NCBI GenBank assembly: GCA_964369695.1
Contig: CAYJGL010000001.1
Coordinates: 123,450 to 187,449 of the forward strand
DNA from: an uncultured Clostridium sp.
Lineage (GTDB): Bacteria; Bacillota; Clostridia; TANB77; CAG-508
DNA length: 64,000 nucleotides
Direction of reading: 5' to 3'
Below the pieces are notes generated by a model, which saw nothing but the letters and a program-made list of their open reading frames with translations, was not told the origin of the DNA and made no database searches. The translations under genes and the position numbers were made by a program. The stretch's first letter is position 1. Every line of letters starts with the position of its first letter. Shown here piece after piece: positions 6,010 to 56,862 of the stretch.

Positions 6010-6825
6010 TTACGAATATGTTTTATCTAAAATTTCTTTTATTCTACTATTTTTATATTCATTTGCATATTCGTTTTTAATCATTGTTATTATTTTTTTT
6101 ATTCTTCTTTCTGAATTTGGGTGAGTACTTCCATAAATAAAATCTCTAATAATATATAATGTTCTTAAAAATTTCCCATGACTTTCTATTTCTTTATTTT
6201 TAAAAATTTTAAATGCATGTATTAATTCATCACCATATCCATATTCAACTGCTAATTTATCAGCATTATATTCTGACATGTGTTGAGTAAAATATAATGA
6301 TCTGCCTACTAAAAATAAAATTCCAAAAACACTTTGTCCAATTATAGGTATCTTTGATAATAAAGTTATAAATTTAGTAGACAATTCACTTATTTCATTT
6401 AAAACTTTTAAACCACCAGTTAAATGATTTACAATATGTCCTATTTCATGAAGTAATATGGCTGTAATTTCTCTAGGATTTAATTCATCTAATAATTCTT
6501 TACCATAAACAAGATGTAACCTTTCTATATTGCCTAATTCTATTTTCTTTTTATTTTTATTTATCTTTCCAAATTTATAAATAGGAATAACACAAAAATT
6601 AAAAGCACCTGAGCCTAAATAGTCAGTATATATTTCAACCTTGCAACTTAATAATTTAGATAAGTAAATTTCTAATTTTTTATTTAACTTTGCAATATCC
6701 AATTTATCTTTACATGCTTTTAATTGTTTAAAAATTAAATCAACTTGTTGCAATCCTTGCAATCTATTAGTTCCAATTTCTAATAAAACTTGTTGAGATA
6801 TAGATATATTATTTTGTTTGCACAT
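6010..6825 (-). CDS. M48 (HtpX/Ste24)-like zinc metallopeptidase
   Basis: HEIGH (HExxH) in ILLHEIGHIVNH; downstream EYNADKLAVEYG (E..AD..A); C-terminal THPNSERRIKKI like the M48 HP...eRI motif; hydrophobic segment IPIIGQSVFGILFLVG. Track start 6846 is GTG; ATG at 6825 has GGAGG 5 nt upstream. Confidence 0.75.
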   Translation of the reverse strand: MCKQNNISISQQVLLEIGTNRLQGLQQVDLIFKQLKACKDKLDIAKLNKKLEIYLSKLLSCKVEIYTDYLGSGAFNFCVIPIYKFGKINKNKKKIELGNIERLHLVYGKELLDELNPREITAILLHEIGHIVNHLTGGLKVLNEISELSTKFITLLSKIPIIGQSVFGILFLVGRSLYFTQHMSEYNADKLAVEYGYGDELIHAFKIFKNKEIESHGKFLRTLYIIRDFIYGSTHPNSERRIKKIITMIKNEYANEYKNSRIKEILDKTYS

Positions 6826-7771
6826 TATTTCCTCCATATTGTCCACATAATTGTTTATATAAGCAAAAGAAACAACCTTTCGTTAAGATATATTCATCAT
6901 TCATTGGAGGTATAATTTGATTATCAATATAATAATTAATTCTTTTAATTTTATTCAATAACCAATTCATATGTTCTGTTATATCCAATTTTGTTAAATT
7001 TAAATCTATAGATGTTATAAAATGAAATTGATTTTGTCTGGATTGTAATAATTGTTTGACTTGTTTTGCATTATTTTGAGCTTCACTAAATGATTTTACA
7101 TCAGATGACATTATATCATGAGCAACATATATTAATTGAATTAACTCAATATTGTAATGATCTAATTTTGGAGGAGGAGTTCTAGTATTTTGTTGAGATT
7201 GTATTTCTTGTAAATGATTTTCTAACAAATATTTATATAATAATGTTTGGTAAAAATCTTCATCTCTGGGTCTTTTACTTTTTATAATTTTATAATAATC
7301 AGTATATGTACAACTTTTAATTTCAACTAAAACATTATTATTGATTAAGCAGTCAATTCTTGTAGAACATTTTATAGAAGGAACTTTCATAGAGACTTCT
7401 TGTTCCGTAAATCCAGTATATGTTGATTGTATAAAATCATGTATTGCATTTCCTATATTCGCTCTCAATGATATAGGCAACCAAACATCATGATAATCAG
7501 CAATAGGATAATGTAATAATTTAAAAACAACATCTCTTATACAATTATGTGCAATATCATAAGAATTAATCAACTGAGCATTATTTCTATATTCTTTATT
7601 TTTATTATGTGACTTATCATTTAAATCGTCTATAAAATCCTGAACATGAAATAATTTAGGAGCAGGATTATTTTGAATTTGTAAATCTTGAGTTTGAGGG
7701 TTATTATCGTTATTGATATTTTGATTAGTAGTTTTATCATTTATATTATTTAAAAGATTTGTATAACTCAT
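6809..7771 (-). CDS. Cas4/RecB-family PD-(D/E)XK nuclease with Fe-S cysteine cluster
   Basis: RIDCLINNNVLVEIKSC (D...E-x-K), QTLLY (QxxxY motif), C-terminal C-x2-C-x5-C (CFFCLYKQLC), as in Cas4/AddB-type nucleases. Confidence 0.7.
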   Translation of the reverse strand: MSYTNLLNNINDKTTNQNINNDNNPQTQDLQIQNNPAPKLFHVQDFIDDLNDKSHNKNKEYRNNAQLINSYDIAHNCIRDVVFKLLHYPIADYHDVWLPISLRANIGNAIHDFIQSTYTGFTEQEVSMKVPSIKCSTRIDCLINNNVLVEIKSCTYTDYYKIIKSKRPRDEDFYQTLLYKYLLENHLQEIQSQQNTRTPPPKLDHYNIELIQLIYVAHDIMSSDVKSFSEAQNNAKQVKQLLQSRQNQFHFITSIDLNLTKLDITEHMNWLLNKIKRINYYIDNQIIPPMNDEYILTKGCFFCLYKQLCGQYGGNNVQTK

Positions 7772-9074: not shown

Positions 9075-9092
9075 TTATATCTATATTTTTTT
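9075..9092 (-). promoter_or_regulatory. Promoter-like motif AAAAAAATATAGATATAA
   Basis: Read on the minus strand. Lies 27 nt upstream of ATG 9047, directly after the terminator hairpin. Confidence 0.4.
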
Positions 9093-13666: not shown

Positions 13667-14566
13667 TTATTTTTTTAAATATAAATCTAATTTTTTCAAA
13701 ATAAATTTAGAACCTATATTTAAATCAATCACTCTTTGATTAATATTTGTGGGTAACTTCCAATATCTTAATATAGGACCACTACATAATCTTCCTATCA
13801 ATTCATATATTTTATCAATATAAACATCAGTATTTGTATCTCCAATTATACAAACATGGATAGCATCTGAAATATCAAATGGTTTTGTTTTAAAAAAAGA
13901 ATTATCTGATTTTTTGAGTTTTAAGTTATTTGAATTTATTAATTCTAATGCTTTATTTGTATTTATAGGATATTTCATATCTAATGGTCTTGTATTAAAT
14001 ATATAATATTGTCCTTCTATAATCTCAATACAATAATGCCATGGTAAAAAATCTACAATTCCCTTAGTATATATATTTTTATAATGATATTTTATTAAAG
14101 GTAAATTAAATTTAGAATTATCTAATTTAGGTTCAGGCATTGGAAATATAAGATTATTATAAGTATCTTCTATTATAATACCTTCTGGTTTTATTTGTAT
14201 CTTATTTGAACTATTAGAAGTATCAGATGCTGCTAATTCTGCTGGAGTTGGTTTTATTCTATTATATAATTCATCTTTATCTCTATTAAAAAGTTTATCT
14301 TTGACTGATTTTTTTACAATATCAGTTGTTATTTTTTTAGCTATGATAGTTGCACCAGCAGCAGCTATCATAGCTTCTGGAGAAGATGCTACAGTACTTG
14401 CAACTTTACCTGGAAGAGTCAATGCTGGTATAGTTGATTTTTTTCCAATATAATAAGCAGCTGATAATCCTAAACCACCAACAGTAGCAGCAACTGCATT
14501 TTGTTCTAATAGTACATTAGTTTCTTCAAAATCAAAAATAGATTTTTGTATTTTTGGAGTAGACAT
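13667..14566 (-). CDS. Membrane-associated protein with glycine-zipper N-terminal region (299 aa)
   Basis: AVAATVGGLGLSAAYYIG and AAAGATIIAKK segments. Lies directly downstream of the MreB-like gene. Confidence 0.75.
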   Translation of the reverse strand: MSTPKIQKSIFDFEETNVLLEQNAVAATVGGLGLSAAYYIGKKSTIPALTLPGKVASTVASSPEAMIAAAGATIIAKKITTDIVKKSVKDKLFNRDKDELYNRIKPTPAELAASDTSNSSNKIQIKPEGIIIEDTYNNLIFPMPEPKLDNSKFNLPLIKYHYKNIYTKGIVDFLPWHYCIEIIEGQYYIFNTRPLDMKYPINTNKALELINSNNLKLKKSDNSFFKTKPFDISDAIHVCIIGDTNTDVYIDKIYELIGRLCSGPILRYWKLPTNINQRVIDLNIGSKFILKKLDLYLKK

Positions 14567-16497: not shown

Positions 16498-16515
16498 TTA
16501 TATCTATATTTTTTT
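16498..16515 (-). promoter_or_regulatory. Promoter-like motif AAAAAAATATAGATATAA
   Basis: Identical 18-mer to the copy at 9075-9092, about 50 nt upstream of ATG 16446 in an 84-nt gap. Confidence 0.4.
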
Positions 16516-21256: not shown

Positions 21257-24200
21257 TTATTTTATTTGTTTAGTATATATTTTCCATTCACCAATCGAAT
21301 GACCAGTTCCTCCTTCAGTTATAGAAGAATATCTACAAAGTCTATATCTATTATATTCATTGGTTATATTTTCTAAAGTAAATTCTTTAAGTACTAAATT
21401 TCCCCAAGTTTGAGGATCTGAAACATCATGAATTAAGTCCCAATTAACTCCATTATCTGGAGATGCATATAATCTCCACTTATTAAAACAAGGATGATTA
21501 TAATTGATTTGTTGAATAGAATATGAATATGGTTTAAACCGTATACTAAATTGAATATCTATGAATGGAGTATCCTTAATATTTGTCGGAGTATCCATAT
21601 GCCAACAATATGTATTTGATGTTGCTGTGTCAAATTTCTGTAAACTCCGATAAACCATATGTTGAGGATGTCCATGTTCAGCATTATATTCATACGTATA
21701 ACCATTTGGAGGAGTTTGTCCAGTCCAGGCAGGTAATATATCTTCTCCATTTTTATCATAAAAGAATATACTACCAAGAGTCTGACCTTCAATATCATAT
21801 ATCCAAATTTCATCATATTCAAAATCATAATCAAAATCTAATATCATTGAATGAGTTGCATCCCATTCTAATGAAGGTGCTATATTTAAAATTCCATCAG
21901 ATCCATCTCTTGTATAAGAATCATATAACAATACATATGTGTTTGTATTTGCAATTCTAGCTTTTAACTTATATTGATTGATAGTTTGTGCCAAATAACT
22001 CCCTCTTCTACAAATTTTAGCACTTTTAATAGATCTTGGGGATGGTATTGTTATTTTAAGAAATACAGTTTCTGAATTAAGACAGTTTCCTTGTTCATAC
22101 CAATCTTGATGATATGAACTAACATCTTTATTAAATGCTTTAAATGGATAATAATCAGTATTATACATGCTTGAAGCAGTTGCTCGTTGATAAATTTTCT
22201 GATCATTCCATTTTCCAGGAAGAGTATATGATAAAGTTTTATTAGTCATTTGACCTATAATATCATAAGCTTCATCCTGATATTCTGGTAATGGAACACC
22301 TTTAAATTCTAAAAATTTAGATTTTGATTGTTTTGTAAATATATTCCATTGACCAATAGCATGCCCTTCTCCACCTTCTAATGATGAATATCTTCTTAAT
22401 CTATACCTATTATATATATTTGTTATATTTTCTAATACAAAATTTTTAACTTCTAAATAATTCCAAGTTTGATGGTCAGAAACATCATGTATTAAGTCCC
22501 AATTAACTCCATTATCTGGAGATGCATATAATCTCCACTTATTAAAATTAGGATAATTTAAATCAGACTGTTGTAACGTATAAGAATACGGTTTAAATAA
22601 AGCATTAAAAATAATATCAATAAAAGGACTATATTCTGGCATTTTATCTTCTGAGTATGTTTTTGATCTTGTTGGTAATTGCCAAGATCTATTCGTTATA
22701 TGACCATCAGACAATATTCTCCAAGGTTTGAAATTAATATGATTTTGATAAGGATAACCTTCACATTCATATCCTTCTTCTAATTCCTCAGTAGTAAATC
22801 TTGGAAATATAGCCTTTCCATTATTATCATAAATATATATTCTGCTGATTAAACTGGTAGATATATCATATATATATATTTCATCAAATAATAAATCAGT
22901 AGGATTATACAATTCAAACTCTAAAGAGTCTTGGTTCCAAACTAAGTTTGAAGTTGTATTATTAAGTCCTTGATTTTCATAATTATTATATGTATCATAT
23001 AATAATATAAATTTAGAATATCCTAATGGTTTAGCTTTTACTCTAAATTGTCTTGGACTTCTATTATAATATGTTGATATTGTTGTTATCTTTAATTTTT
23101 TCAATATTTTAGGAATTGGTATTTTTAATCTAAAATAAGTGCAAGAATTATAAGTACCTAAACCATTTGCAGACCATAATGTATTATCATTATTATCAAA
23201 TGATTTAAATGGGGCAAAATCAATAAGATTAGCACCATCAATACTAGATGCTATAGTCTTTTGTTGAATAGGTAAATTTTCAAAATGACCATCAATAGTA
23301 TGTTCTAAAATATTAGAAAACATCATACCAATCATATTATAAATCTCTATAATAACTTCTGTACTTGGTGCTTTTGGATTAATATTTATTTGTTTAGTAA
23401 AAATCTTCCATTCACCAATAGAGAGATTAGAACCTCCTTCAGAAGTTGCATATCTTCTAAGTCTATATCTATTATACTCATTTGTTATATTTTCTAATAC
23501 AAATGTTTTTTCTACTAAATTTCCCCAAGTTTGAGGTTCTGAAACATCATGAATTAAGTCCCAATTAACTCCATTATCTGGAGATGCATATAATCTCCAC
23601 TTATTAAAACAAGGATGATTATAATTGATTTGTTGAATAGAATATGAATATGGTTTAAATCTTATATTAAATAAAATTTCTAGAAATGGTTCTACTTGAG
23701 AATTATGTGCATACCAACCACTATAAGATCCTGCGTTTGTAATTTTATTTAGAACGTTCCAAGTTTGCCAACCACTAGAACTGTACCATGGAAATATTTC
23801 ATATTCGTATCCAGATGGAGCAGATGAACTTGTCCATATAGGCAATATATCTTCATTATTTTCATCATAAAACCAAACACCAGTCATATGAGTAAATGAG
23901 ATGTCATAAAACCATATTTCATTAAATGATAAATCATATTCATTATCTAAATCAAATATTTTAAATGCTTCAGAATTTTCCCAAATTATACTAGGAGATA
24001 TTTCCAAAATACCATCCGAACCATCTGAAGTATATGAATCATACAATAGCACGAATTTATCTAAATCTGGACTAAATCCTTTAACTCTAAACTGAAGTAT
24101 TCCATCTTCAGAATAATTTGCTAATTGCTGTATTTTTATTTTTTTAAATATTTTTGGATTAGGCAATTTAACCCACATATATGCCGTTTCTTGAAAATGA

Positions 24201-25888
24201 CTTCCATTTCCAACATACCAATTTTGATAATAACTACTGACATCTTTATTAAATGCCTTAAACGATGCATAATTTGAATTATAAATACCAGAAGATAATG
24301 CTCTTTGGTGAATTTTTTCATTATTCCATTTCCCAGAAATATTATAAGAATGAGTATTTGAAGACATTTTTCCAATAATATCATAAGCATCTTCTATAAA
24401 TAATAAAACATCAACAGATATTGTAAAAGGATTGAAATTATAATAATATTTAATAAAATTAGAAATTAGACATTGTCCAATATATTGTATTATATGATCT
24501 TTTTCTCTTGGTTCTTTATACATAACTTTACCAGATTCTATATTAGAAACATATATATTAGAAGAAACGGCATTACTATTTGTTTGTTTAGTATATATTT
24601 TCCATTCACCAATCGAATGACCAGTTCCTCCTTCAGTTATAGAAGAATATCTACAAAGTCTATATCTATTATATTCATTGGTTATATTTTCTAAAGTAAA
24701 TTCTTTAAGTACTAAATTTCCCCAAGTTTGAGGATCTGAAACATCATGTATTAAGTCCCAATTAACTCCATTATCTGGAGATGCATATAGTCTCCACTTA
24801 TTAAAACAAGGATGATTATGATTAACTTGTTGAATTGAATAAGAATGTGGTTTAAACATTATACTAAATTGAATATCTAGGAATGGAGTATTCTTAATAT
24901 TTGTTGGAGTATCCATATGCCAACAATATGTATTTGATGTTGCTGTGTCAAATTTCTGTAAACTCCGATAAACCATATGTTGAGGATGTCCATGTTCAGC
25001 ATTATATTCATACGTATAACCATTTGGAGGAGTTTGTCCAGTCCAGGCAGGTAATATATCTTCTCCATTTTTATCATAAAAGAATATACTACCAAGAGTC
25101 TGACCTTCAATATCATATATCCAAATTTCATCATATTCAAAATCATAATCAAAATCTAATATCATTGAATGAGTTGCATCCCATTCTAATGAAGGTGCTA
25201 TATTTAAAATTCCATCAGATCCATCTCTTGTATAAGAATCATATAACAATACATATGTGTTTGTATTTGCAATTCTAGCTTTTAACTTATATTGATTGAT
25301 AGTTTGTGCCAAATAACTCCCTCTTCTACAAATTTTAGCACTTTTAATAGATCTTGGGGATGGTATTGTTATTTTAAGAAATACAGTTTCTGAATTAAGA
25401 CAGTTTCCTTGTTCATACCAATCTTGATGATATGAACTGACATCTTTATTAAATGCTTTAAATGGATAATAATTAGTACTATACATACTTGAAGCAGTTG
25501 CTCGTTGATAAATTTTCCGATCATCCCATTTTCCAGAAATAGTATGTTCTAAAGTTTTATTAGTCATTTGACCTATAATATCATACTCTTCTTCTGATTC
25601 TGGAGGTGTTCCCTCTTCAGTAGTAACAATATATCCAAATAATAGCAAGTCACAACGACTATTTGAAGATTTATTTTCTAAAGAAACAGCTCGTGCTGGC
25701 ATTTTTTCTGGATCAGATGATAATGCTTTCATCCATCGATTCAAAGGTATATCAAAATATAATATATCTCCTATAATAACAGATTCTCCAACTACACCAT
25801 GTGTATATAATCCTGAAGTATCATTTTCTGCTGTTATATTAAAATAATTATTGGACCCTTTTGTTAAAATATCAGAAATAAATTTCAT
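21257..25888 (-). CDS. Giant tail fibre / receptor-binding protein with four double discoidin-like units
   Basis: About 1543 aa. FNKWRLYASPDNGVNWDLIHDVS occurs four times, each followed by NEYNRYRL(R/C)RY...GG.G..IGEWKI(Y/F)TKQ. First and fourth units are nearly identical. Track start 25894 is TTG; ATG at 25888 follows GAGGA. Confidence 0.55.
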   Translation of the reverse strand: MKFISDILTKGSNNYFNITAENDTSGLYTHGVVGESVIIGDILYFDIPLNRWMKALSSDPEKMPARAVSLENKSSNSRCDLLLFGYIVTTEEGTPPESEEEYDIIGQMTNKTLEHTISGKWDDRKIYQRATASSMYSTNYYPFKAFNKDVSSYHQDWYEQGNCLNSETVFLKITIPSPRSIKSAKICRRGSYLAQTINQYKLKARIANTNTYVLLYDSYTRDGSDGILNIAPSLEWDATHSMILDFDYDFEYDEIWIYDIEGQTLGSIFFYDKNGEDILPAWTGQTPPNGYTYEYNAEHGHPQHMVYRSLQKFDTATSNTYCWHMDTPTNIKNTPFLDIQFSIMFKPHSYSIQQVNHNHPCFNKWRLYASPDNGVNWDLIHDVSDPQTWGNLVLKEFTLENITNEYNRYRLCRYSSITEGGTGHSIGEWKIYTKQTNSNAVSSNIYVSNIESGKVMYKEPREKDHIIQYIGQCLISNFIKYYYNFNPFTISVDVLLFIEDAYDIIGKMSSNTHSYNISGKWNNEKIHQRALSSGIYNSNYASFKAFNKDVSSYYQNWYVGNGSHFQETAYMWVKLPNPKIFKKIKIQQLANYSEDGILQFRVKGFSPDLDKFVLLYDSYTSDGSDGILEISPSIIWENSEAFKIFDLDNEYDLSFNEIWFYDISFTHMTGVWFYDENNEDILPIWTSSSAPSGYEYEIFPWYSSSGWQTWNVLNKITNAGSYSGWYAHNSQVEPFLEILFNIRFKPYSYSIQQINYNHPCFNKWRLYASPDNGVNWDLIHDVSEPQTWGNLVEKTFVLENITNEYNRYRLRRYATSEGGSNLSIGEWKIFTKQININPKAPSTEVIIEIYNMIGMMFSNILEHTIDGHFENLPIQQKTIASSIDGANLIDFAPFKSFDNNDNTLWSANGLGTYNSCTYFRLKIPIPKILKKLKITTISTYYNRSPRQFRVKAKPLGYSKFILLYDTYNNYENQGLNNTTSNLVWNQDSLEFELYNPTDLLFDEIYIYDISTSLISRIYIYDNNGKAIFPRFTTEELEEGYECEGYPYQNHINFKPWRILSDGHITNRSWQLPTRSKTYSEDKMPEYSPFIDIIFNALFKPYSYTLQQSDLNYPNFNKWRLYASPDNGVNWDLIHDVSDHQTWNYLEVKNFVLENITNIYNRYRLRRYSSLEGGEGHAIGQWNIFTKQSKSKFLEFKGVPLPEYQDEAYDIIGQMTNKTLSYTLPGKWNDQKIYQRATASSMYNTDYYPFKAFNKDVSSYHQDWYEQGNCLNSETVFLKITIPSPRSIKSAKICRRGSYLAQTINQYKLKARIANTNTYVLLYDSYTRDGSDGILNIAPSLEWDATHSMILDFDYDFEYDEIWIYDIEGQTLGSIFFYDKNGEDILPAWTGQTPPNGYTYEYNAEHGHPQHMVYRSLQKFDTATSNTYCWHMDTPTNIKDTPFIDIQFSIRFKPYSYSIQQINYNHPCFNKWRLYASPDNGVNWDLIHDVSDPQTWGNLVLKEFTLENITNEYNRYRLCRYSSITEGGTGHSIGEWKIYTKQIK
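21268..22275. repeat. About 1-kb intragenic direct repeat, copy 1 (fourth fibre unit)
   Basis: Near-identical to 24586-25593 at a constant offset of 3318 nt. The track shadow ORFs at 21559/24877 and 21583/24901 are almost identical. Confidence 0.85.
24586..25593. repeat. About 1-kb intragenic direct repeat, copy 2 (first fibre unit)
   Basis: See copy 1 (21268-22275). Confidence 0.85.
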
Positions 25889-25890
25889 AA

Positions 25891-26340
25891 TCAATCCTCA
25901 ATCATCTGTAAAACAAGTGGACTAAAATCAAAATATCCAACATTAGTTCCTAATGCTGTTCCTATTACTTGTTTAAATGAATTAGTAACAGGAACAATAT
26001 CTGTAGCTAAACCCAATTCAGTATCAGAAACGTAAATATAATTAGATGTAAAATTCCAATTATCATTTCTTATTGTTCCATTTTGTAATAATTTAATTGT
26101 AGAATCTACTAAACCATTTTCACAGGATATTGCTTTACAAGGTAATGTTTCTTGAATATTTGATTTAGCTAATTTCCATTTATTTAATTTAAAATCAAAA
26201 TATAAACATTGTCCAAAATAAACATCTTCTCCTAATAAGCCATCAACTATAAATCCACTATATTCAAGATTATTTGGAGCAACATTTACTCTTATTTTTG
26301 AATTAGGACCTAATGATTGTAAACTTCCTATTACTTTCAT
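25891..26340 (-). CDS. Small fibre-module protein sharing the fibre N-terminal anchor domain
   Basis: 149 aa. GEDVYFGQCLYFDFKLNKWKLAKSN..LPCKAIS aligns with GESVIIGDILYFDIPLNRWMKALSS..MPARAVS and GEDVKKGDLLYYDDNLKKYMKALSS..MPCRAIA of the two giant genes. Confidence 0.7.
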   Translation of the reverse strand: MKVIGSLQSLGPNSKIRVNVAPNNLEYSGFIVDGLLGEDVYFGQCLYFDFKLNKWKLAKSNIQETLPCKAISCENGLVDSTIKLLQNGTIRNDNWNFTSNYIYVSDTELGLATDIVPVTNSFKQVIGTALGTNVGYFDFSPLVLQMIED

Positions 26341-26387
26341 AATTTATCCTATTATTTTTATTAATTTCTTAAGTTCTTTTTATAATC

Positions 26388-26400
26388 AATATATAGATAT
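26388..26400 (+). promoter_or_regulatory. Promoter-like motif AATATATAGATAT
   Basis: About 75 nt upstream of ATG 26476 of the GC-rich island, oriented with the plus-strand genes. Confidence 0.35.
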
Positions 26401-26475
26401 TGTTTATAAAGGTATTAAGGTGGGATATTCCTATCTGAAGCATTTTGTGATATCTTAATTCTTTTGGAGGAACAT

Positions 26476-26670
26476 ATGTTCGGAAAGAAGAAGACGGATA
26501 CCAAGGATTTACTTCTTGGTGTGGCCGGCGGAGTTGCCGGCACTTTATTGGCCGTATGTGCGGCTGTCTTTTGGCAGGATGTTATTCCTACTGAAAGACA
26601 ACAATCACGGCAATCACGGCGGGAACGCCGCCGTGCAAATGGTAATGGCAACAACAGCAATACCCCATAG
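26476..26670 (+). CDS. Small single-pass membrane protein, YtxH-like N-terminus (tentative), in GC-rich island
   Basis: GGAGG 5 nt before ATG (track start 26464 is TTG). MFGKKKTDTKDLLLGVAGGVAGTLLAVCAAVFW followed by an Arg-rich tail RQQSRQSRRERRRAN. About 50 percent G+C against an AT-rich background. Confidence 0.65.
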   Translation: MFGKKKTDTKDLLLGVAGGVAGTLLAVCAAVFWQDVIPTERQQSRQSRRERRRANGNGNNSNTP

Positions 26671-26707
26671 TTGCCAAGGGAACGTCAACATCCCTCAATT
26701 TGTTGAC

Positions 26708-26745
26708 AAGAGGGGGACGTAAAACTCTCCCTTCTTTTATTCATT
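26708..26745 (+). terminator. Terminator/attenuator-like hairpin between the two island ORFs
   Basis: AAGAGGGGG (26708-26716) pairs with CTCCCTTCTT-type arm (26728-26736), including two G-U pairs. Followed by TTTAT. Confidence 0.35.
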
Positions 26746-26758
26746 TTAGGAGTCAAAT

Positions 26759-26863
26759 ATGCAAATCTATATCATTTATGCCTTATTTGCAGCGGCTGGG
26801 TCGGCTGCAACTGCTGGAATATTCAAGATATTCCGGCCAAAAAAGAGATGCTTCTTCTTTTAA
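26759..26863 (+). CDS. 34-aa hydrophobic peptide (MQIYIIYALFAAAGSAATAGIFKIFRPKKRCFFF)
   Basis: Not in track (too short). TAGGAG 6 nt before ATG at 26759, TAA at 26861-26863, followed by a strong terminator. One TM-like helix plus a basic tail. Confidence 0.5.
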   Translation: MQIYIIYALFAAAGSAATAGIFKIFRPKKRCFFF

Positions 26864-26875
26864 AAATATCAGAAA

Positions 26876-26916
26876 AAAGAGGAGATTTAAAAAAAAACCT
26901 CCTCTTTATTTTTTAT
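26876..26916. terminator. Bidirectional rho-independent terminator at a convergent junction
   Basis: 9-bp stem AAAGAGGAG (26876-26884) / CTCCTCTTT (26899-26907). T-runs follow on both strands. Confidence 0.7.
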
Positions 26917-45472: not shown

Positions 45473-46504
45473 TTATTTATAAAAATAATTTTCTAATATA
45501 TCATCATCCCACATATTTATCTGACATGTATATGGTCCGTAACCAATATGAGTTGGTTTTCTCAAATCAGGATTATTTTTAAATAAATATAAATCTTCTT
45601 CTCTCATGTAATTTATAAAATTTAAAAATATATAATCTGGTTCTAAAAATTCTATCATTCTTTTATATTGCATTTTACTAAATGTAAAAATTCTTCTAAC
45701 TTTATTAGTAACAGTAGTATATTCTTTTTCTAATTTCAAATCATCCCAAGATAATTCTATACTATCATCATAAGTTGGGCCACTCGTTCCTATAATTTTA
45801 CCATTTTTATCTGTAGGATTAGCAACTCTAATAGGATATGTTCGAACTGTTGTTATACACGATCCCATATATTTTGGATGCAAACACAAATCTGCCAATA
45901 CAGCACTTGGTATAACATCAACAGAAGTGCAATATGGATAAGATAATCCACTATTAATACCCAAATCAAATCCTTGACCAGTTTCAACTAATATATTTAA
46001 ATCTAAATCTAAATATTCTTTTAAATTAAATGATTTTTGTATAAATCTTTTTAAAGCTGGAGTATTCTCTGCTAATGGATTGGTTCTTAAAATTTTACTT
46101 GAACGAGCAGAACCACTACCAGATAATGTACTTCCAATATTTGTAAGAATATTATTTTCTGCTAGTTTATCATTATTTTCAATAACGGCAATTCTTGGAT
46201 GAAGTATGATTCTATCTTCATCTATATCAAATTTTTTAATTTCATGGAGAAATAAATCAACATCAATAACACATCCAGCAGACATGTATATTGTTGATCT
46301 TGGTTGTATAATTGCAGTTACTGGAATTAGTTTTGTTATATATTTTATATCATTATAATAAAAAGTATGTCCAGCATTTGGAGATAATCTTCCTACAACA
46401 ATATCAATATGATAATTTTCAGCTATATATGCTGCCATTAAACCTTTTCCTGTACTTCCAAATTGGCCATCAATAATCATATTTGCTTTGCCTGATTGGA
46501 TCAT
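45473..46504 (-). CDS. Adenylosuccinate synthetase family protein, short archaeal/PurZ-like form
   Basis: DGQFGSTGKG (PurA GTQWGDEGKG), SPNAGHT (NAGHT), GSTLSGSGSARSSK (GTTGRGIGPAYEDK), VETGQGFDLGINSGLSYPYCTS ([22 protein letters not shown]), TTVTNKVRR (GATTGRRRR). 343 aa. Track start 46528 is TTG; ATG at 46504. Confidence 0.7.
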   Translation of the reverse strand: MIQSGKANMIIDGQFGSTGKGLMAAYIAENYHIDIVVGRLSPNAGHTFYYNDIKYITKLIPVTAIIQPRSTIYMSAGCVIDVDLFLHEIKKFDIDEDRIILHPRIAVIENNDKLAENNILTNIGSTLSGSGSARSSKILRTNPLAENTPALKRFIQKSFNLKEYLDLDLNILVETGQGFDLGINSGLSYPYCTSVDVIPSAVLADLCLHPKYMGSCITTVRTYPIRVANPTDKNGKIIGTSGPTYDDSIELSWDDLKLEKEYTTVTNKVRRIFTFSKMQYKRMIEFLEPDYIFLNFINYMREEDLYLFKNNPDLRKPTHIGYGPYTCQINMWDDDILENYFYK

Positions 46505-46528
46505 TGATTTATTTCTCCATTTGATCAA

Positions 46529-50786: not shown

Positions 50787-50800
50787 TATAGAGATATAAT
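50787..50800 (+). promoter_or_regulatory. Promoter-like motif variant TATAGAGATATAAT
   Basis: 38 nt upstream of helicase ATG 50839, in a divergent intergenic region. Confidence 0.3.
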
Positions 50801-55072: not shown

Positions 55073-55105
55073 GATATATCTCCTTTAAAATTTTATTATT
55101 AATAT

Positions 55106-55696
55106 CTATATTATTTTTTTATATAATAAATCTAGTTTAATAAATATTTTCTTAAGAGTATACCATGTGTGATATAATTGTTTATCTAAAAGTTTATAAT
55201 GACGCCAAAAACCATTTCTTATAAATTCAAATTCTTCTTTTTTTACATTTTTATATAATAATTTAAATTCGTTAAATGTTATCACTAAATTTAAATAATA
55301 TTCATCTATATCTTTCCATTTATCTTTTGTCATTTTTATTTTCTTACTTAATATAGATTCCATCTCTAATAATCCTGGATGATTATGAAAATGGTGATAT
55401 AATTGAAATTGTATTAATTTTGATAATAATAAAAGATACCTATCTTTTTCATTCATATAATATGATGTTGTAGAAAAAGTTATTATAGGTATAGCTTTAT
55501 CCAAATCTCTAGAATTTATGATTATATTATTTTGTACTAACGGCAGAAATGTATATTTTTTATATAAAAATTCTATATTTTGTTTAATTTCTAATTCATA
55601 TATATTATCTGGATTAGCAACAATTACATCAACATCTGGTTTTAAATAAGATTTACAAATATCATAAGCTTCAGATTCATAATTATTAGAAGACAT
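55106..55696 (-). CDS. Hypothetical protein (196 aa)
   Basis: First gene of the short minus block. Confidence 0.7.
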   Translation of the reverse strand: MSSNNYESEAYDICKSYLKPDVDVIVANPDNIYELEIKQNIEFLYKKYTFLPLVQNNIIINSRDLDKAIPIITFSTTSYYMNEKDRYLLLLSKLIQFQLYHHFHNHPGLLEMESILSKKIKMTKDKWKDIDEYYLNLVITFNEFKLLYKNVKKEEFEFIRNGFWRHYKLLDKQLYHTWYTLKKIFIKLDLLYKKII

Positions 55697-55726
55697 TTTA
55701 AAATCCTTATGTTTTTTTGATATTCA

Positions 55727-55740
55727 ATATATAGATATAT
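55727..55740 (+). promoter_or_regulatory. Promoter-like motif ATATATAGATATAT
   Basis: 33 nt upstream of ATG 55774. Confidence 0.35.
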
Positions 55741-55773
55741 GATATAAACATTTAACCCACAAAGGAGGCACTT

Positions 55774-55977
55774 ATGTGGGATTGGTTTAAAAATCTTGGT
55801 CGGCCTAAAAAGCCGACAAACATTGATTACCTGAACGCAATATTAGATCGCGTTCAGGTAGAAATGACAGTAGACCAACATGGATTAGTTGGTCCAGTCA
55901 AAATAGTTATAGGAAAAAAAGATGTTACAACCAACACCGTTGATACAACAATATCAACGGAAGCAACGGAAGATTAA
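55774..55977 (+). CDS. 67-aa ORF in GC-richer island; may be coding, a structured RNA, or both
   Basis: AAAGGAGG 5 nt before ATG and a promoter-like motif upstream support coding. Four strong hairpins inside the ORF argue for RNA/DNA structure (see the hairpin-cluster feature at 55799-55960). Confidence 0.45.
   Translation: MWDWFKNLGRPKKPTNIDYLNAILDRVQVEMTVDQHGLVGPVKIVIGKKDVTTNTVDTTISTEATED
55799..55960 (+). other. Cluster of four consecutive hairpins (possible structured RNA or protein-binding palindromes)
   Basis: H1: GTCGGC/GCCGAC, 55799-55817. H2: TACCTGAACGC/GCGTTCAGGTA, 55828-55860, 11 bp perfect. H3: GACCAAC/GTTGGTC, 55873-55894. H4: CCGTTGATA/TATCAACGG, 55937-55960, 9 bp perfect. 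Confidence 0.6.
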
Positions 55978-55979
55978 AC

Positions 55980-56031
55980 TTTTTAGAAGATGAAAAATAT
56001 ATTATAATTTTTTCATCTTCTAAAAATTTTT
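55980..56031. terminator. Bidirectional rho-independent terminator at a convergent junction
   Basis: 18-bp stem TTTTTAGAAGATGAAAAA (55980-55997) / TTTTTCATCTTCTAAAAA (56009-56026), followed by TTTTTATTT. Confidence 0.8.
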
Positions 56032-56257
56032 ATTTCATTCTAAATCCCATTTGAGGAAGTTGTCCAGTTGGAGTAGGAGATGCTGCTGGATTTCTATAAA
56101 TATTTTGAGTCTGTGACCTTTGATTTATATTTGATGGTCTTTGAGTTGGCGATCCACTTCTTGCTACTTGAGAATATCCTCCACCAGCAGAAGGTTGCCA
56201 TAATCTTTCAAATAATTCAGTAGAAAAACTTTCAAAAACCAAATCATTAATAGTCAT
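56030..56257 (-). CDS. N-terminally tagged small protein (MTINDLVFESF...)
   Basis: 75 aa, Pro/Gln/Ser-rich remainder. Confidence 0.65.
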   Translation of the reverse strand: MTINDLVFESFSTELFERLWQPSAGGGYSQVARSGSPTQRPSNINQRSQTQNIYRNPAASPTPTGQLPQMGFRMK

Positions 56258-56271
56258 ATTTTACTCCTTTA

Positions 56272-56724
56272 TTAATATTGTCTATTTGAATCATATTCTT
56301 TATTCTTAAAAAAATCAGAAATACCATTTTTAGCGTTAGTCCCTTTATTATACAAACGTTGAGCACCATAATGAGCTCCACCAGTTATAGCTCCTCCAAC
56401 TCCTGCTCCAACCATCATTGATTTTTTAAATGAATTTTTAGAATTTAGATCATTTAATCTATCCCTAAAGTAATTTTGAGCTTCGCCGGATTGAGCTGAA
56501 TTCAATTTATTTTCTAAACTTCTCCTTCTAAAAAAATTAACAACTTTACTTCCTATTCCAAAAGTAAGCCCAGATGCTAGTCCTCCTAATCCAGCACCTA
56601 CCATTGCTGTCTTAGAAGTTGCAGCATTAGCAGCAGAACCTAATCTACTTGTTCCTCCAGAAGATTGTGGAGGAGATTGTTCATTTTCAGTAAATGAATT
56701 TAGAACTAATAAATTTATATTCAT
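56272..56724 (-). CDS. N-terminally tagged glycine-zipper protein (MNINLLVLNSF...)
   Basis: 150 aa, GGAGAATTAA before ATG. Two internal repeats: MVGAGLGGLASGLTFGIG and MVGAGVGGAITGGAHYG. Confidence 0.75.
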   Translation of the reverse strand: MNINLLVLNSFTENEQSPPQSSGGTSRLGSAANAATSKTAMVGAGLGGLASGLTFGIGSKVVNFFRRRSLENKLNSAQSGEAQNYFRDRLNDLNSKNSFKKSMMVGAGVGGAITGGAHYGAQRLYNKGTNAKNGISDFFKNKEYDSNRQY

Positions 56725-56749
56725 TTAATTCTCCTTTCTTTTATATTTA

Positions 56750-56767
56750 TTATATCTATTTTATTTT
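56750..56767 (-). promoter_or_regulatory. Promoter-like motif AAAATAAAATAGATATAA
   Basis: Read on the minus strand, 25 nt upstream of ATG 56724. Confidence 0.35.
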
Positions 56768-56812
56768 GTATAATTTTAAAGGATATAATTAAGATAAAAA
56801 TTTATTTTATAT

Positions 56813-56834
56813 AAAAATAATATAGATATAAAAT
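56813..56834 (+). promoter_or_regulatory. Promoter-like motif AAAATAATATAGATATAAAAT
   Basis: 31 nt upstream of ATG 56863. Second, oppositely oriented copy in the same divergent gap. Confidence 0.4.
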
Positions 56835-56862
56835 ATAAAATAAAATTAGAAAGGATAATTTG

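Follow-up and report, generated by a model that had tools for sequence, protein, structure and literature searches.

Why should a very AT-rich genome keep, between two genes of the opposite strand, a short piece of DNA that is GC-richer than its surroundings and folds into one hairpin after another? The question is raised by a small cassette (55727-56031) in a stretch of 64,000 nucleotides, hereafter the window, from a phage-like genome of about 264 kb with a GC content of 24%. The preliminary description of this DNA had left open whether the cassette is a structured regulatory or decoy RNA, a set of protein-binding palindromes, or a small protein gene whose mRNA is heavily structured. Our analysis revealed that the last of these is best supported, by the length of the open reading frame (ORF), its GC periodicity, the Shine-Dalgarno (SD) sequence, the promoter core and the terminator; what is established below from the DNA itself comprises the elements, the degree to which they exceed chance, and the tuning at synonymous positions. 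More specifically, we tentatively read the locus as an armoured accessory gene cassette, in which a small orphan protein would be controlled at the RNA level. This is the best of the readings weighed here, although we put its probability somewhat under one half.

Table 1. Coordinates of the features of the cassette and of its sister in the window (energies in kcal/mol)
Feature	Position	Strand	Remarks
Putative promoter module	55694-55748	+	recognised by recurrence of the motif; promoter function predicted
Exact 15-mer TCAATATATAGATAT	55724-55738	+	contains core TATAGATAT at 55730-55738
-10-like TATAAA	55743-55748	+	4-nt spacer after core TATAGATAT
5' hairpin, CCCACAAAG with CTT.TGTGGG	55756-55780	+	-10.2; pair probability 0.99
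SD AAAGGAGG	55761-55768	+	N5 before ATG at 55774; read directly
ORF67	55774-55977	+	67 codons; 67-aa orphan protein MWDWFKNLGRPKKPTNIDYLNAILDRVQVEMTVDQHGLVGPVKIVIGKKDVTTNTVDTTISTEATED
Long-range helix around H1-H3	arms 55782-55797 / 55919-55934	both	16 nt, 81%
H1, 6-bp perfect stem GTCGGC/GCCGAC	55799-55804/55812-55817	both	-10.1 plus, -11.3 minus
H2, 11-bp perfect stem TACCTGAACGC/GCGTTCAGGTA	55828-55838/55850-55860	both	-17.7 plus, -20.9 minus
H3, 7-bp perfect stem GACCAAC/GTTGGTC	55873-55879/55888-55894	both	-10.1 plus, -13.0 minus
H4, 9-bp perfect stem CCGTTGATA/TATCAACGG	55937-55945/55952-55960	both	-11.5 plus, -13.1 minus
Tandem 9-nt duplication, two copies of CAACGGAAG	55954-55971	+	in frame; read from sequence
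Terminator, 18-bp stem, 11-nt loop	55980-55997/56009-56026	both	-18.9 plus, -18.0 minus
Sister promoter module (putative)	26356-26410	+	exact 15-mer 26386-26400, TATAAA 26405-26410
Sister 5' hairpin, 8 bp	26418-26436	+	begins 7 nt past TATAAA; from folding
Sister ORF A1	26476-26670	+	64-aa single-pass membrane peptide; SD GGAGG-N5-ATG
Sister ORF A2	26759-26863	+	34-aa membrane peptide; SD AGGAG
Sister terminator AAAGAGGAG/CTCCTCTTT, then T-run	26876-26914	+	read from sequence; present in fold

The cassette had been described as oriented against its flanking genes, and in fact both of these (55106-55696 and 56030-56257) lie on the minus strand while the cassette lies on the plus strand; a switch of gene orientation is found at 56725-56860, about 0.8-1 kb away. 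Its GC excess had been noted as well, and this stands for the cassette (0.35-0.385, where the window averages 0.243 with an sd of 0.047), but the cassette is not alone in it: the genes beside it on the minus strand, as far as 56700, have a raised GC content too, though from a different cause, solely through their amino-acid composition, with a GC content at third codon positions (GC3) of 0.11.

Is the frame within the cassette, ORF67, a gene? The perfect SD with its five-nucleotide spacing to the ATG was found just as described, and neighbouring phage genes have SDs of this type. An ATG-initiated frame of at least 67 codons appeared in 27 of 5000 shuffles (0.5%), and the GC content of the three codon positions (.51/.34/.30) follows the periodicity GC1 > GC2 > GC3. 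The codon usage is aberrant, with a mean log synonymous frequency of -1.14 versus -0.61 +/- 0.066. The product would be a hydrophilic protein whose sequence has no hydrophobic segment, and its AlphaFold model is poor (pLDDT 59, pTM 0.25). The direct repeat noticed before is present as a tandem, with whose second copy the 5' arm of hairpin H4 may pair instead.

These observations bear on the possibility that the cassette specifies a structured non-coding RNA, with a regulatory, decoy or anti-defence role, and that the frame is untranslated or incidental, which we consider quite unlikely. The structure by itself would suit such an RNA well: in genomes of about 25% GC, islands that are GC-rich and fold strongly are the classic signature of structured RNA (PMC6429828), the folding z-scores lie at -6 to -9, the SD and AUG are partly buried, and the protein, an orphan, has a predicted fold of low confidence. 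Of the earlier proposal of a purely non-coding structured or decoy RNA the strong structure thus stands, but the proposal as a whole has become less likely by the evidence for the ORF and by the outcome of the suggested Rfam/Infernal check, in which no family matched the window at gathering thresholds and only sub-threshold noise was seen at E <= 10. The frame runs from the SD to a stop codon 2 nt before the start of the terminator, as in 0.5% of shuffles, its codon-position GC is periodic, its unpaired wobble positions keep the native GC3 of the genome, and the sister cassette (Table 1) plainly codes for two SD-led membrane peptides. Moreover, about a quarter of the GC-IGR islands proved to be short ORFs (PMC6429828).

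Within ORF67 four successive inverted repeats (H1-H4), with stems of 6, 11, 7 and 9 bp, had been reported and were all recovered; in H2 both arms are codon-aligned, and on the minus strand its stem becomes 14 bp with one G.U. That such stems are very unlikely by chance was borne out by 5000 dinucleotide shuffles of ORF67: a longest stem of at least 11 bp has P = 0.0006, a second stem of at least 9 bp never occurred (0/5000), four stems of at least 6 bp have P = 0.0014, and the summed stem length is 33, where the shuffles average 2.7 and reach 28 at most. The comparison of folding energies with shuffled controls, which the preliminary description had suggested, gave a minimum free energy (MFE) for ORF67 of -60.2 kcal/mol against -35.2 +/- 4.0 for dinucleotide shuffles (z -6.3), none of which matched it (0/200), and for the whole cassette the z-score reaches -8.8. 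The five hairpins of the mRNA, namely the one at the 5' end and H1-H4, have pair probabilities of at least 0.87 with means of 0.98-1.00, and the long-range helix spanning 55782-55934 is found on both strands, in the MFE as well as in the centroid structure. Corrected for GC, the MFE ranks the region with the top four or five outliers in the window (-2.9 to -3.7 sd), though it is not unique there, as the intragenic segments 33601 and 14301 fold comparably. The terminator scan found no U-run after any plus-strand intragenic hairpin, and therefore none of them should terminate the mRNA prematurely.

Palindromes of this kind may also act at the level of DNA, as protein sites or as single-stranded hairpins for priming or initiation, packaging or a fork barrier, overlapping a small gene. 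The perfect stems consist of Watson-Crick pairs only and both strands fold, and the switch of gene orientation lies near; we nevertheless hold this to be the least probable of the alternatives. The four stems have no common sequence, which makes one sequence-specific binder unlikely and tells against the set of palindromes for a single binding protein that had been proposed; a repeated recognition site of the operator, parS, origin or iteron type was not found, the stems being unrelated and without further copies in the window, and the hairpins of the sister cassette are different again. When copies or antisense targets of either cassette were sought in the window, the best matches were exact but no longer than 14 nt, and lay in AT-rich parts. 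Besides, the enrichment of G-C pairs suits RNA stability and would matter less for DNA if the phage DNA carried 2-aminoadenine, at which a PurZ-like gene only hints.

At which codon positions, then, is the structure made? ORF67 folds far better than its synonymous variants, with z -5.2 against permutation of synonymous codons (0/1000) and z -4.8 against GC-matched synonymous resampling (0/735). Its GC3 is 0.48 at paired and 0.11 at unpaired positions, the genome having 0.106 +/- 0.023, and this gap is larger than a circularity control in 391 of 400 permutations; expressed by stems, GC3 is 11/21 in the perfect stems and 8/45 outside. Rare codons (CGG, CCG, TAC, CTG, AAC, CGC, CAG, GAC, ACC, ACG) lie in the hairpin arms, for example CGG, AAG and CCG in H1 and TAC, CTG, AAC, CGC and CAG in H2, while the rare Thr codons ACC and ACG form a wobble-wobble C-G pair in H4. 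Since the GC-ending wobble bases are gathered in the stems, the structure is made at synonymous sites.

The same distribution bears on whether the structure has any present function. It might instead belong to a recently acquired foreign gene, or be the relic of palindromic selfish insertions comparable to the Rickettsia palindromic elements or the GC clusters of yeast mitochondria. Composition and codon usage do deviate from the genome, and in the sister ORF A1 the GC3 is raised even at unpaired positions (0.24); moreover the layout is moron-like by the usual definition (PMC4378225). However, we find such an origin very unlikely, since a uniformly foreign composition would differ at unpaired sites too, whereas the GC3 excess of ORF67 sits in the stems alone and its unpaired positions equal the genome. 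In addition, the window holds no repeat family, protein searches found no donor homologue, and under AT pressure perfect GC-containing stems that are not selected would be expected to decay fast.

How would such a gene be transcribed? The promoter-like motif upstream had been called rightly. Other genes, too, have its core TATAGATAT in front of them at a fixed spacing, namely 27-35 nt upstream of the SD-led starts at 9077, 55102, 56752 and 56821. The exact 15-mer around this core occurs twice in the window, each time upstream of a plus-strand GC-richer cassette, and the two modules (55694-55748 and 26356-26410) are identical at 41 of 55 positions; in their upstream 30 nt the match is 20/30 (P = 5e-5). 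The module can also be read as an extended -10, TGATATAAA. It is quasi-palindromic and may also fire leftward into the gene 55106-55696.

Beginning 7 nt past the TATAAA, a hairpin takes half of the SD into its loop and the AUG into its 3' arm, and from the putative transcription start it is predicted to form the very 5' end of the mRNA. The start region of ORF67 (-30..+30) has an MFE of -12.9, which ranks 2 among 82 ORF starts (mean -5.1, sd 2.8), and the two most structured start regions of these 82 are those of ORF67 and of the sister ORF A1. At the other end of the cassette the 18-bp terminator stem is present as had been proposed, with the U-run AUUUUUAUUU behind it on the plus strand and a weaker U-run on the minus strand, and it probably serves both ORF67 and the convergent gene 56030-56257. 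The loop limit of the terminator scan is less than 11 nt, and hence this terminator does not stand in its list.

Is the design repeated? A second cassette at about 26356-26914, on the plus strand and likewise oriented against its neighbours, has in common with the first the promoter module, a hairpin after the TATAAA, elevated GC3, excess structure and a terminator. ORF A1 has GC1/2/3 values of.59/.51/.44 and a synonymous-permutation z of -3.2, and homologue and family searches with it found neither a homologue nor a family; ORF A2 has a GC3 of.42 and a z of -2.4. Two cassettes of one design point to a small regulatory class in this phage.

A model of selection on the mRNA only, however, does not predict one further property of the locus, namely that it folds better on the opposite strand. 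The minus-strand MFE of the ORF67 region is -71.6 (z -9.3) versus -60.2 (z -6.3) on the plus strand, the difference of -11.4 compares with a null of 0.5 +/- 4.0 (z about -3.0), and each of H1-H4 is 1.2-3.2 kcal/mol stabler on the minus strand. G.U pairs number 0 of 48 in the plus-strand MFE structure and 5 of 59 in that of the minus strand; beside every one of the perfect stems H1-H4 the first non-Watson-Crick position is an A.C on the plus strand, which is a G.U on the minus, and in three of the four hairpins pairs continue beyond it. Moreover, the terminator scan found three of the four intragenic hairpins terminator-like on the minus strand only, the terminator-like sites of that strand in the region numbering 5 against 0.4 +/- 0.9 expected. 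This better folding of the opposite strand was absent from the preliminary description, as were the hairpin over SD and AUG, the sister cassette and the separate cause of the GC content of the neighbouring genes.

From this asymmetry, from the A.C positions that become G.U beside all four stems and from the surplus of terminator-like sites, it may be argued that the hairpins act on the minus strand, ORF67 possibly still being coding. They could be back-up terminators, roadblocks or 3'-end protectors for an operon (56724->56030) leaking past the bidirectional terminator, or else stem-loops through which an antisense RNA and the ORF67 mRNA, as its sense partner, form a kissing-loop control pair. 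We judge this unlikely, though it keeps an appreciable share of our belief, for the U-tails on that strand are weak and interrupted, and the 18-bp bidirectional terminator already stands ahead of the hairpins. The gene 55106-55696 may own a leftward promoter in the quasi-palindromic module, a signal of weak specificity, in which case read-through would be unneeded. Furthermore, the sister cassette has no strand asymmetry in folding (z -1.2 to +1.5), and the excess of 4 A.C against 0-1 G.U has by our estimate a p of only about 0.06-0.19 under a simple transition-decay null. It could also be that we deal with an undescribed class of phage 'armoured mini-genes', whose hairpin arrays, symmetric between the two strands, are the functional product, with the ORF secondary or dual-function and the minus-strand structure equally read, be it as bidirectional insulators between head-on units or as decoy or anti-defence RNAs; with these forms taken jointly, we regard it as improbable to the same degree as the non-coding RNA above.

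Does the cassette have relatives elsewhere? A word-indexed search of ORF67 against 5.8 billion proteins returned the query itself only, and an exhaustive HMMER search over 1.84 billion representatives yielded, apart from the query, one K/E/P-rich repeat protein of 2433 aa; its score adds up 10 repeats with no more than 31 bits apiece, was judged to be repeat- and composition-driven, and the protein was rejected as a homologue. Nothing was found for ORF67 in Pfam, PHROGs, NCBIfam, PADLOC or the PDB sequences, or by an exact-protein contig look-up, and viral-contig scans with ORF67, the neighbouring ORF412 and the H2 pattern gave zero related loci. A homologue search for ORF412 returned itself only, tblastn with three neighbour proteins against 50,697 phage records gave none, and a DNA search with the cassette region gave one chance match of 65 nt. 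The 25-nt promoter pattern had 0 viral and 13 metagenome loci, all single matches without a cassette; the 13 were rejected as relatives, 7 of them being the promoter of one bacterial PadR-like gene at about 42% GC. No anti-SD motif of the aapA3 type was seen inside ORF67 when its sequence was read by eye. A resemblance of the N-terminus of ORF67 to MinE was considered and dropped, there being no Pfam match, and a retron, a CRISPR-repeat mimic, a tRNA-like element and an integron attC site were rejected as their defining neighbours or motifs are missing.

Returning to the armoured accessory gene cassette, the following picture may be drawn. ORF67 would be an independently transcribed, moron-like unit with its own promoter, SD, 67-codon frame and intrinsic terminator, and its transcript would be 'armoured', in that rare GC-ending codons are placed where they complete four stem-loops in the coding sequence, while at the predicted 5' end the SD and AUG are half-buried in a fifth hairpin and the 18-bp terminator hairpin caps the 3' end. 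Such an mRNA may be long-lived because both ends would be protected and little single-stranded AU-rich RNA would be left for endonucleases, and its translation would be weak or conditional, since rare codons and an SD/AUG hairpin of -10 kcal/mol would hinder it, a mode of control known from type I toxin and phage lysis-type mRNAs. The start and end of transcription, translation and the stabilising and throttling roles we infer here from the sequence. If the picture is true, the cassette is an unusually clean natural case of a tiny gene whose synonymous sites are spent almost wholly on RNA architecture, with a wobble composition that is native outside the stems and roughly fivefold GC-enriched inside. 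It would also give an experimental handle on how very AT-rich phages stabilise or silence selected transcripts, and could indicate tightly throttled small proteins (toxin-like, lysis-timing or host-takeover) in an unexplored jumbo-phage lineage. Moreover, the common 55-nt promoter module offers a route to defining a regulon.

How does the cassette compare with systems already known? Like the GC-IGR candidates (PMC6429828), it is a GC-richer, strongly folding island at about 24% GC which that screen would detect, but unlike them it has an SD-led ORF with coding periodicity and no Rfam family. A moron is a single ORF with its own promoter and terminator between two phage genes and with deviant composition (PMC4378225). 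The cassette resembles it in consisting of one small ORF, a predicted promoter and a factor-independent terminator, all recognised from sequence; ORF67 sits between two genes that belong to the transcription units around it, and its GC (0.38 versus 0.24), GC3 (0.30 versus 0.106) and codon usage are unlike those of its neighbours. It differs from a moron in that it has as promoter a motif recurrent in the phage itself and not a host-type lysogenic one, that the deviant GC3 is limited to the stems, which argues for structural selection rather than foreign origin, and that morons are not marked by dense arrays of hairpins inside the gene.

In toxin mRNAs, hairpins sequestering the SD occur in the UTR and within the ORF (PMC6733600). 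The cassette is like the type I toxin mRNAs hok and aapA3 in its small ORF on a short, structured, terminator-capped transcript (predicted here), in the stable hairpin over the SD and start codon (-10.2 kcal/mol), and in the structure that lies in the coding sequence; the products of the sister cassette are short membrane peptides, as type I toxins are. However, ORF67 is hydrophilic with 67 aa, whereas the toxins are small hydrophobic membrane proteins usually under 60 aa, and it has neither an internal anti-SD nor a sequence or Rfam relationship with them, and no antitoxin RNA was identified. As to a promoter for such an antisense RNA, the minus strand inside and 3' of ORF67 showed none of the TATAGATAT type, and generic sigma-70-like matches at background frequency only. 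In mRNAs of the ompA 5' UTR type, a 5'-terminal stem-loop together with a 3' hairpin acts as a stabiliser. Both cassettes likewise have a hairpin predicted 0-2 nt from the 5' end and a strong terminator hairpin at the 3' end, though here the transcription start is a predicted one, the 5' hairpin includes the SD and AUG, and four more hairpins lie inside the ORF. Late promoters of phage T4 have the form TATAAATA. The present motif differs from these in sequence, having G as its fifth base, and a second box, TATAAA-like, follows it 4 nt downstream. It is, as they are, a short AT-rich box, TATAGATAT, at a fixed distance upstream of many genes and without a -35 element, and the recurrent TATAGATAT-N4-TATAAA offers a route to the general promoter of the phage.

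At a GC content of 24.3%, the window looks like a section of a large and highly divergent phage-like genome, with genes for a UvsX-like recombinase, a phage-type helicase, PKD-domain and F5/8-type-C structural proteins and a PurZ-like enzyme. The last scores 230 bits against the PurZ model, below the curated cut-off of 300 and well above the PurA models, and also matches PHROG 1211; the phage DNA may carry 2-aminoadenine in place of adenine. Elsewhere, the 320-aa product of 6809-7771 (minus), possibly a Cas4/RecB-like nuclease, matches PHROG 1706 (E 9.6e-15), whose label is 'CRISPR/Cas system associated'. Near-identical segments of at least 70 nt (...AATAGATATAGACTTTGTAGATATTCTTCTATAACTGAAGGAGGAACTGG) recur on the minus strand within the 1545-aa ORF 21257-25894 (21329-21352, 23465-23473, 24647-24670), which indicates that its product, a large fibre-like structural protein bearing an F5/8 type C domain, contains internal domain repeats.

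The plus-strand cassette at 55727-56031 is flanked by two minus-strand genes, 55106-55696 and 56030-56257, and its SD, its 67-aa ORF (ORF67), the perfect stems of 6, 11, 7 and 9 bp (hairpins H1-H4), the tandem repeat and the terminator are all present as the preliminary description had stated. In the 5' hairpin half of the SD is in the stem and the AUG in the 3' arm; a long-range helix (I3) encloses the four body stem-loops; and the terminator stem begins 2 nt after the ORF67 stop codon, and no plus-strand hairpin inside ORF67 is followed by a U-run. As shown below, this cassette is a genuine feature with robust statistics and a deliberate structure.

Coordinates of the features discussed in the text
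Feature	Position	Strand	Remark
SD of ORF67	55761-55768	+	AAAGGAGG, 5 nt, then ATG at 55774
5' hairpin	55756-55780	+	-10.2 kcal/mol
ORF67	55774-55977	+	67 codons
In-frame tandem	55954-55971	+	CAACGGAAG x2
Terminator stem	55980-55997/56009-56026	+	18 bp; U-run next
A.C (plus)/G.U (minus) positions	55805/55811, 55839/55849, 55872/55895, 55946/55951
A1	26476-26670	+	SD-led, 64-aa membrane peptide
A2	26759-26863	+	SD-led, 34-aa membrane peptide
Core TATAGATAT	9077-9085	-	27-35 nt upstream of SD-led start
Core TATAGATAT	55102-55110	-	27-35 nt upstream of SD-led start
Core TATAGATAT	56752-56760	-	27-35 nt upstream of SD-led start; AATAGATAT
Core TATAGATAT	56821-56829	+	27-35 nt upstream of SD-led start
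Core TATAGATAT	16500-16508	-	further motif site
Core TATAGATAT	50787-50797	+	further motif site
PurZ-like protein	45473-46528	-	351 aa; best match NCBIfam PurZ model (succino-amino-deoxyadenylate synthase)

In 5000 dinucleotide shuffles of ORF67, a stem of at least 11 bp arose with P = 0.0006, four stems of at least 6 bp with P = 0.0014, and a second stem of at least 9 bp never. The native energy, for which such a control had been proposed, was unmatched by the shuffles (MFE -60.2 kcal/mol vs -35.2 +/- 4.0; z -6.3), the whole cassette reaches z = -8.8, and in the predicted fold of the full-length mRNA pair probabilities are 0.98-1.00 for every hairpin. When MFE was regressed on GC over all 200-nt windows of the 64 kb, the region lay at -2.9 to -3.7 sd, among the top four or five outliers together with 33601, 26401 and 14301; its folding is thus exceptional, yet not unique in the window. 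The top outlier on both strands (-3.8, -4.0 sd) consists of two strong inverted repeats (33622-33666 and 33686-33745) in the minus-strand ORF 32790-33779, both within its 5' part, one with 19-nt arms at 89% complementarity and the other with perfect 16-nt arms 28 nt apart; another, 14201-14500 within the minus-strand ORF 13667-14566, reaches about -3 sd on the plus strand.

The structure of ORF67 is encoded at synonymous sites. With the protein and codon set kept, permutation of synonymous codons gave -38.6 +/- 4.2 (native z -5.2, 0/1000), and GC-matched synonymous resampling put the native sequence at z -4.8. GC at wobble positions (GC3) is 0.30, vs 0.106 +/- 0.023 and a maximum of 0.172 in the 48 long ORFs of the window, and the mean log synonymous-codon frequency is 8 sd below theirs, the rare codons CGG, CCG, TAC, CTG, AAC, CGC, CAG, GAC, ACC and ACG being held in the stem arms. 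Paired wobble positions have a GC3 of 0.48 and unpaired ones 0.11, the genome value; since MFE prediction itself favours GC, this difference of 0.37 was compared with synonymous permutations, which gave 0.15 +/- 0.11 (9/400 as large). Because the wobble composition outside the stems is native, a recent foreign origin of ORF67 is argued against. The minus-strand neighbours 56030-56257 and 56272-56724 are also GC-richer but have normal GC3 (0.11); their GC stems purely from proteins rich in Gly, Ala, Ser and Pro, a cause unlike that in ORF67. These two neighbours are orphans; one product, of 150 aa, carries a pair of glycine-zipper-like segments, MVGAGLGGLASGLTFGIG and MMVGAGVGGAITGG, and the other, of 75 aa, is Ser-, Pro- and Gln-rich and looks disordered.

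That the cassette is a non-coding structured RNA is a weakened reading, as a plus-strand ATG-ORF of at least 67 codons occurred in only 27/5000 shuffles of the region and short ORFs account for about a quarter of the GC-rich islands of AT-rich genomes (PMC6429828). Moreover, the SD is of the type found before neighbouring genes, and GC1 0.51 > GC2 0.34 > GC3 0.30 follows the genome's own coding periodicity (0.35/0.30/0.11). The product is an orphan: among 5.8 billion proteins only the query itself, whose sole database copy is on a 263,784-bp contig, was recovered, and one extra match among 1.84 billion representatives was discounted, its score being inflated by repeats. ORF67 had no match in Pfam, PHROG, NCBIfam, PADLOC or PDB, its single-sequence AlphaFold model is poor (pLDDT 59), the proposed Rfam search gave no match, and no relatives of phage or cassette were found in the phage, viral-contig, metagenome and protein collections searched.

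The suggestion that the hairpins are a set of protein-binding palindromes is not supported, because the four stems share no common sequence. A different possibility, that H1-H4 may work in minus-strand RNA, arising by leak-through or as antisense, or else in single-stranded DNA, draws on the better folding of the reverse complement of ORF67 (MFE -71.6 kcal/mol, z -9.3; strand difference -11.4 kcal/mol in favour of minus, z -3.0 vs shuffles). G.U pairs number 0/48 on the plus strand and 5/59 on the minus, the position next to the perfect stem at which Watson-Crick pairing first fails is A.C on plus and G.U on minus in 4/4 hairpins, G.U pairs lengthen all four on the minus strand alone, each hairpin is 1.2-3.2 kcal/mol stabler on the minus strand, and three of them are terminator-like there only; the 5' hairpin and the terminator have a slight advantage on the plus strand. 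However, the asymmetry is absent from the sister cassette described below, and because the A.C/G.U pattern has p ~0.06-0.19 (our own estimate) under a simple transition-decay null, we keep it as an unexplained lead.

The putative promoter region carries a 15-mer, TCAATATATAGATAT, found at exactly two places in the 64 kb (55724 and 26386). Together with the sequence around it, the loci agree at 41/55 positions; the 30 nt upstream match at 20/30 positions vs a null of 9.5 +/- 2.6 (P = 5e-5), and past the common TATAAA identity is random. Four nt past the core TATAGATAT comes an A/T hexamer ((T/A)ATAAA-like), an A-run usually precedes the core, and 5/11 exact core copies are intergenic, intergenic DNA being 5% of the sequence. 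Judged from these occurrences, the motif is probably the phage's own general promoter, with a loose resemblance to the T4 late box TATAAATA. The module is quasi-palindromic, its reverse complement reading TCTATATAT-N4-TATCAA at 55717-55735 and TCTATATAT-N4-TATAAA at the sister locus, both at the right distance from a divergent minus-strand start, which suggests a bidirectional promoter, though the relaxed reverse-complement pattern is unspecific (42 matches in the window). In seven unrelated metagenome contigs of ~42% GC, the 25-nt promoter pattern is also found immediately before a PadR-like regulator gene (MSNIDKTLLSGSMGTMLLKLLSEKDMYGYEMIE...), within a larger AT-rich palindromic block; as relatives of the cassette these loci were rejected, the element probably being a bacterial operator or promoter that matches by coincidence.

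The second copy of the 15-mer, at 26386, belongs to the sister cassette (26356-26912, plus strand), which has the highest GC (42-52%) and the most stable folding in the window. Its design is the same: it is likewise flanked by minus-strand genes and closed by an intrinsic terminator. The promoter modules are homologous, and in both cassettes a hairpin begins 7 nt past TATAAA (26418, 55756). The sister ORFs A1 and A2 have raised GC3 (0.44, 0.42) and structure above synonymous permutations (z -3.2, -2.4), and the whole sister cassette folds at z = -7.6; the translation-start regions of A1 (MFE -14.3) and ORF67 (-12.9) rank first and second in structure among 82 ORF starts (mean -5.1 +/- 2.8). 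No homologues of the sister-cassette peptides were found; their function may be toxin-, holin- or exclusion-like.

The reading with the best support is a stand-alone gene for a small protein, with a transcript built for compactness; most likely it is a small hairpin-armoured orphan gene, a type of cassette of which the phage has at least two. With a stem-loop at or adjoining its 5' end, a body of four stem-loops inside a long-range helix and a strong 3' hairpin as a cap, the transcript would be shielded from 5'-end-dependent and single-strand-specific decay in an AU-rich transcriptome, since ompA-type 5' hairpins and 3' terminator hairpins protect RNA from decay. The SD/AUG hairpin and the rare codons would keep translation low or conditional. 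By analogy, the cassette may be regarded as an accessory gene akin to morons, with RNA control resembling that of toxin mRNAs: its layout is like that of a moron (as defined in PMC4378225), and its SD/AUG hairpin is like the control in type I toxin mRNAs, where SD-sequestering hairpins in UTR and ORF hold translation down or conditional (PMC6733600).
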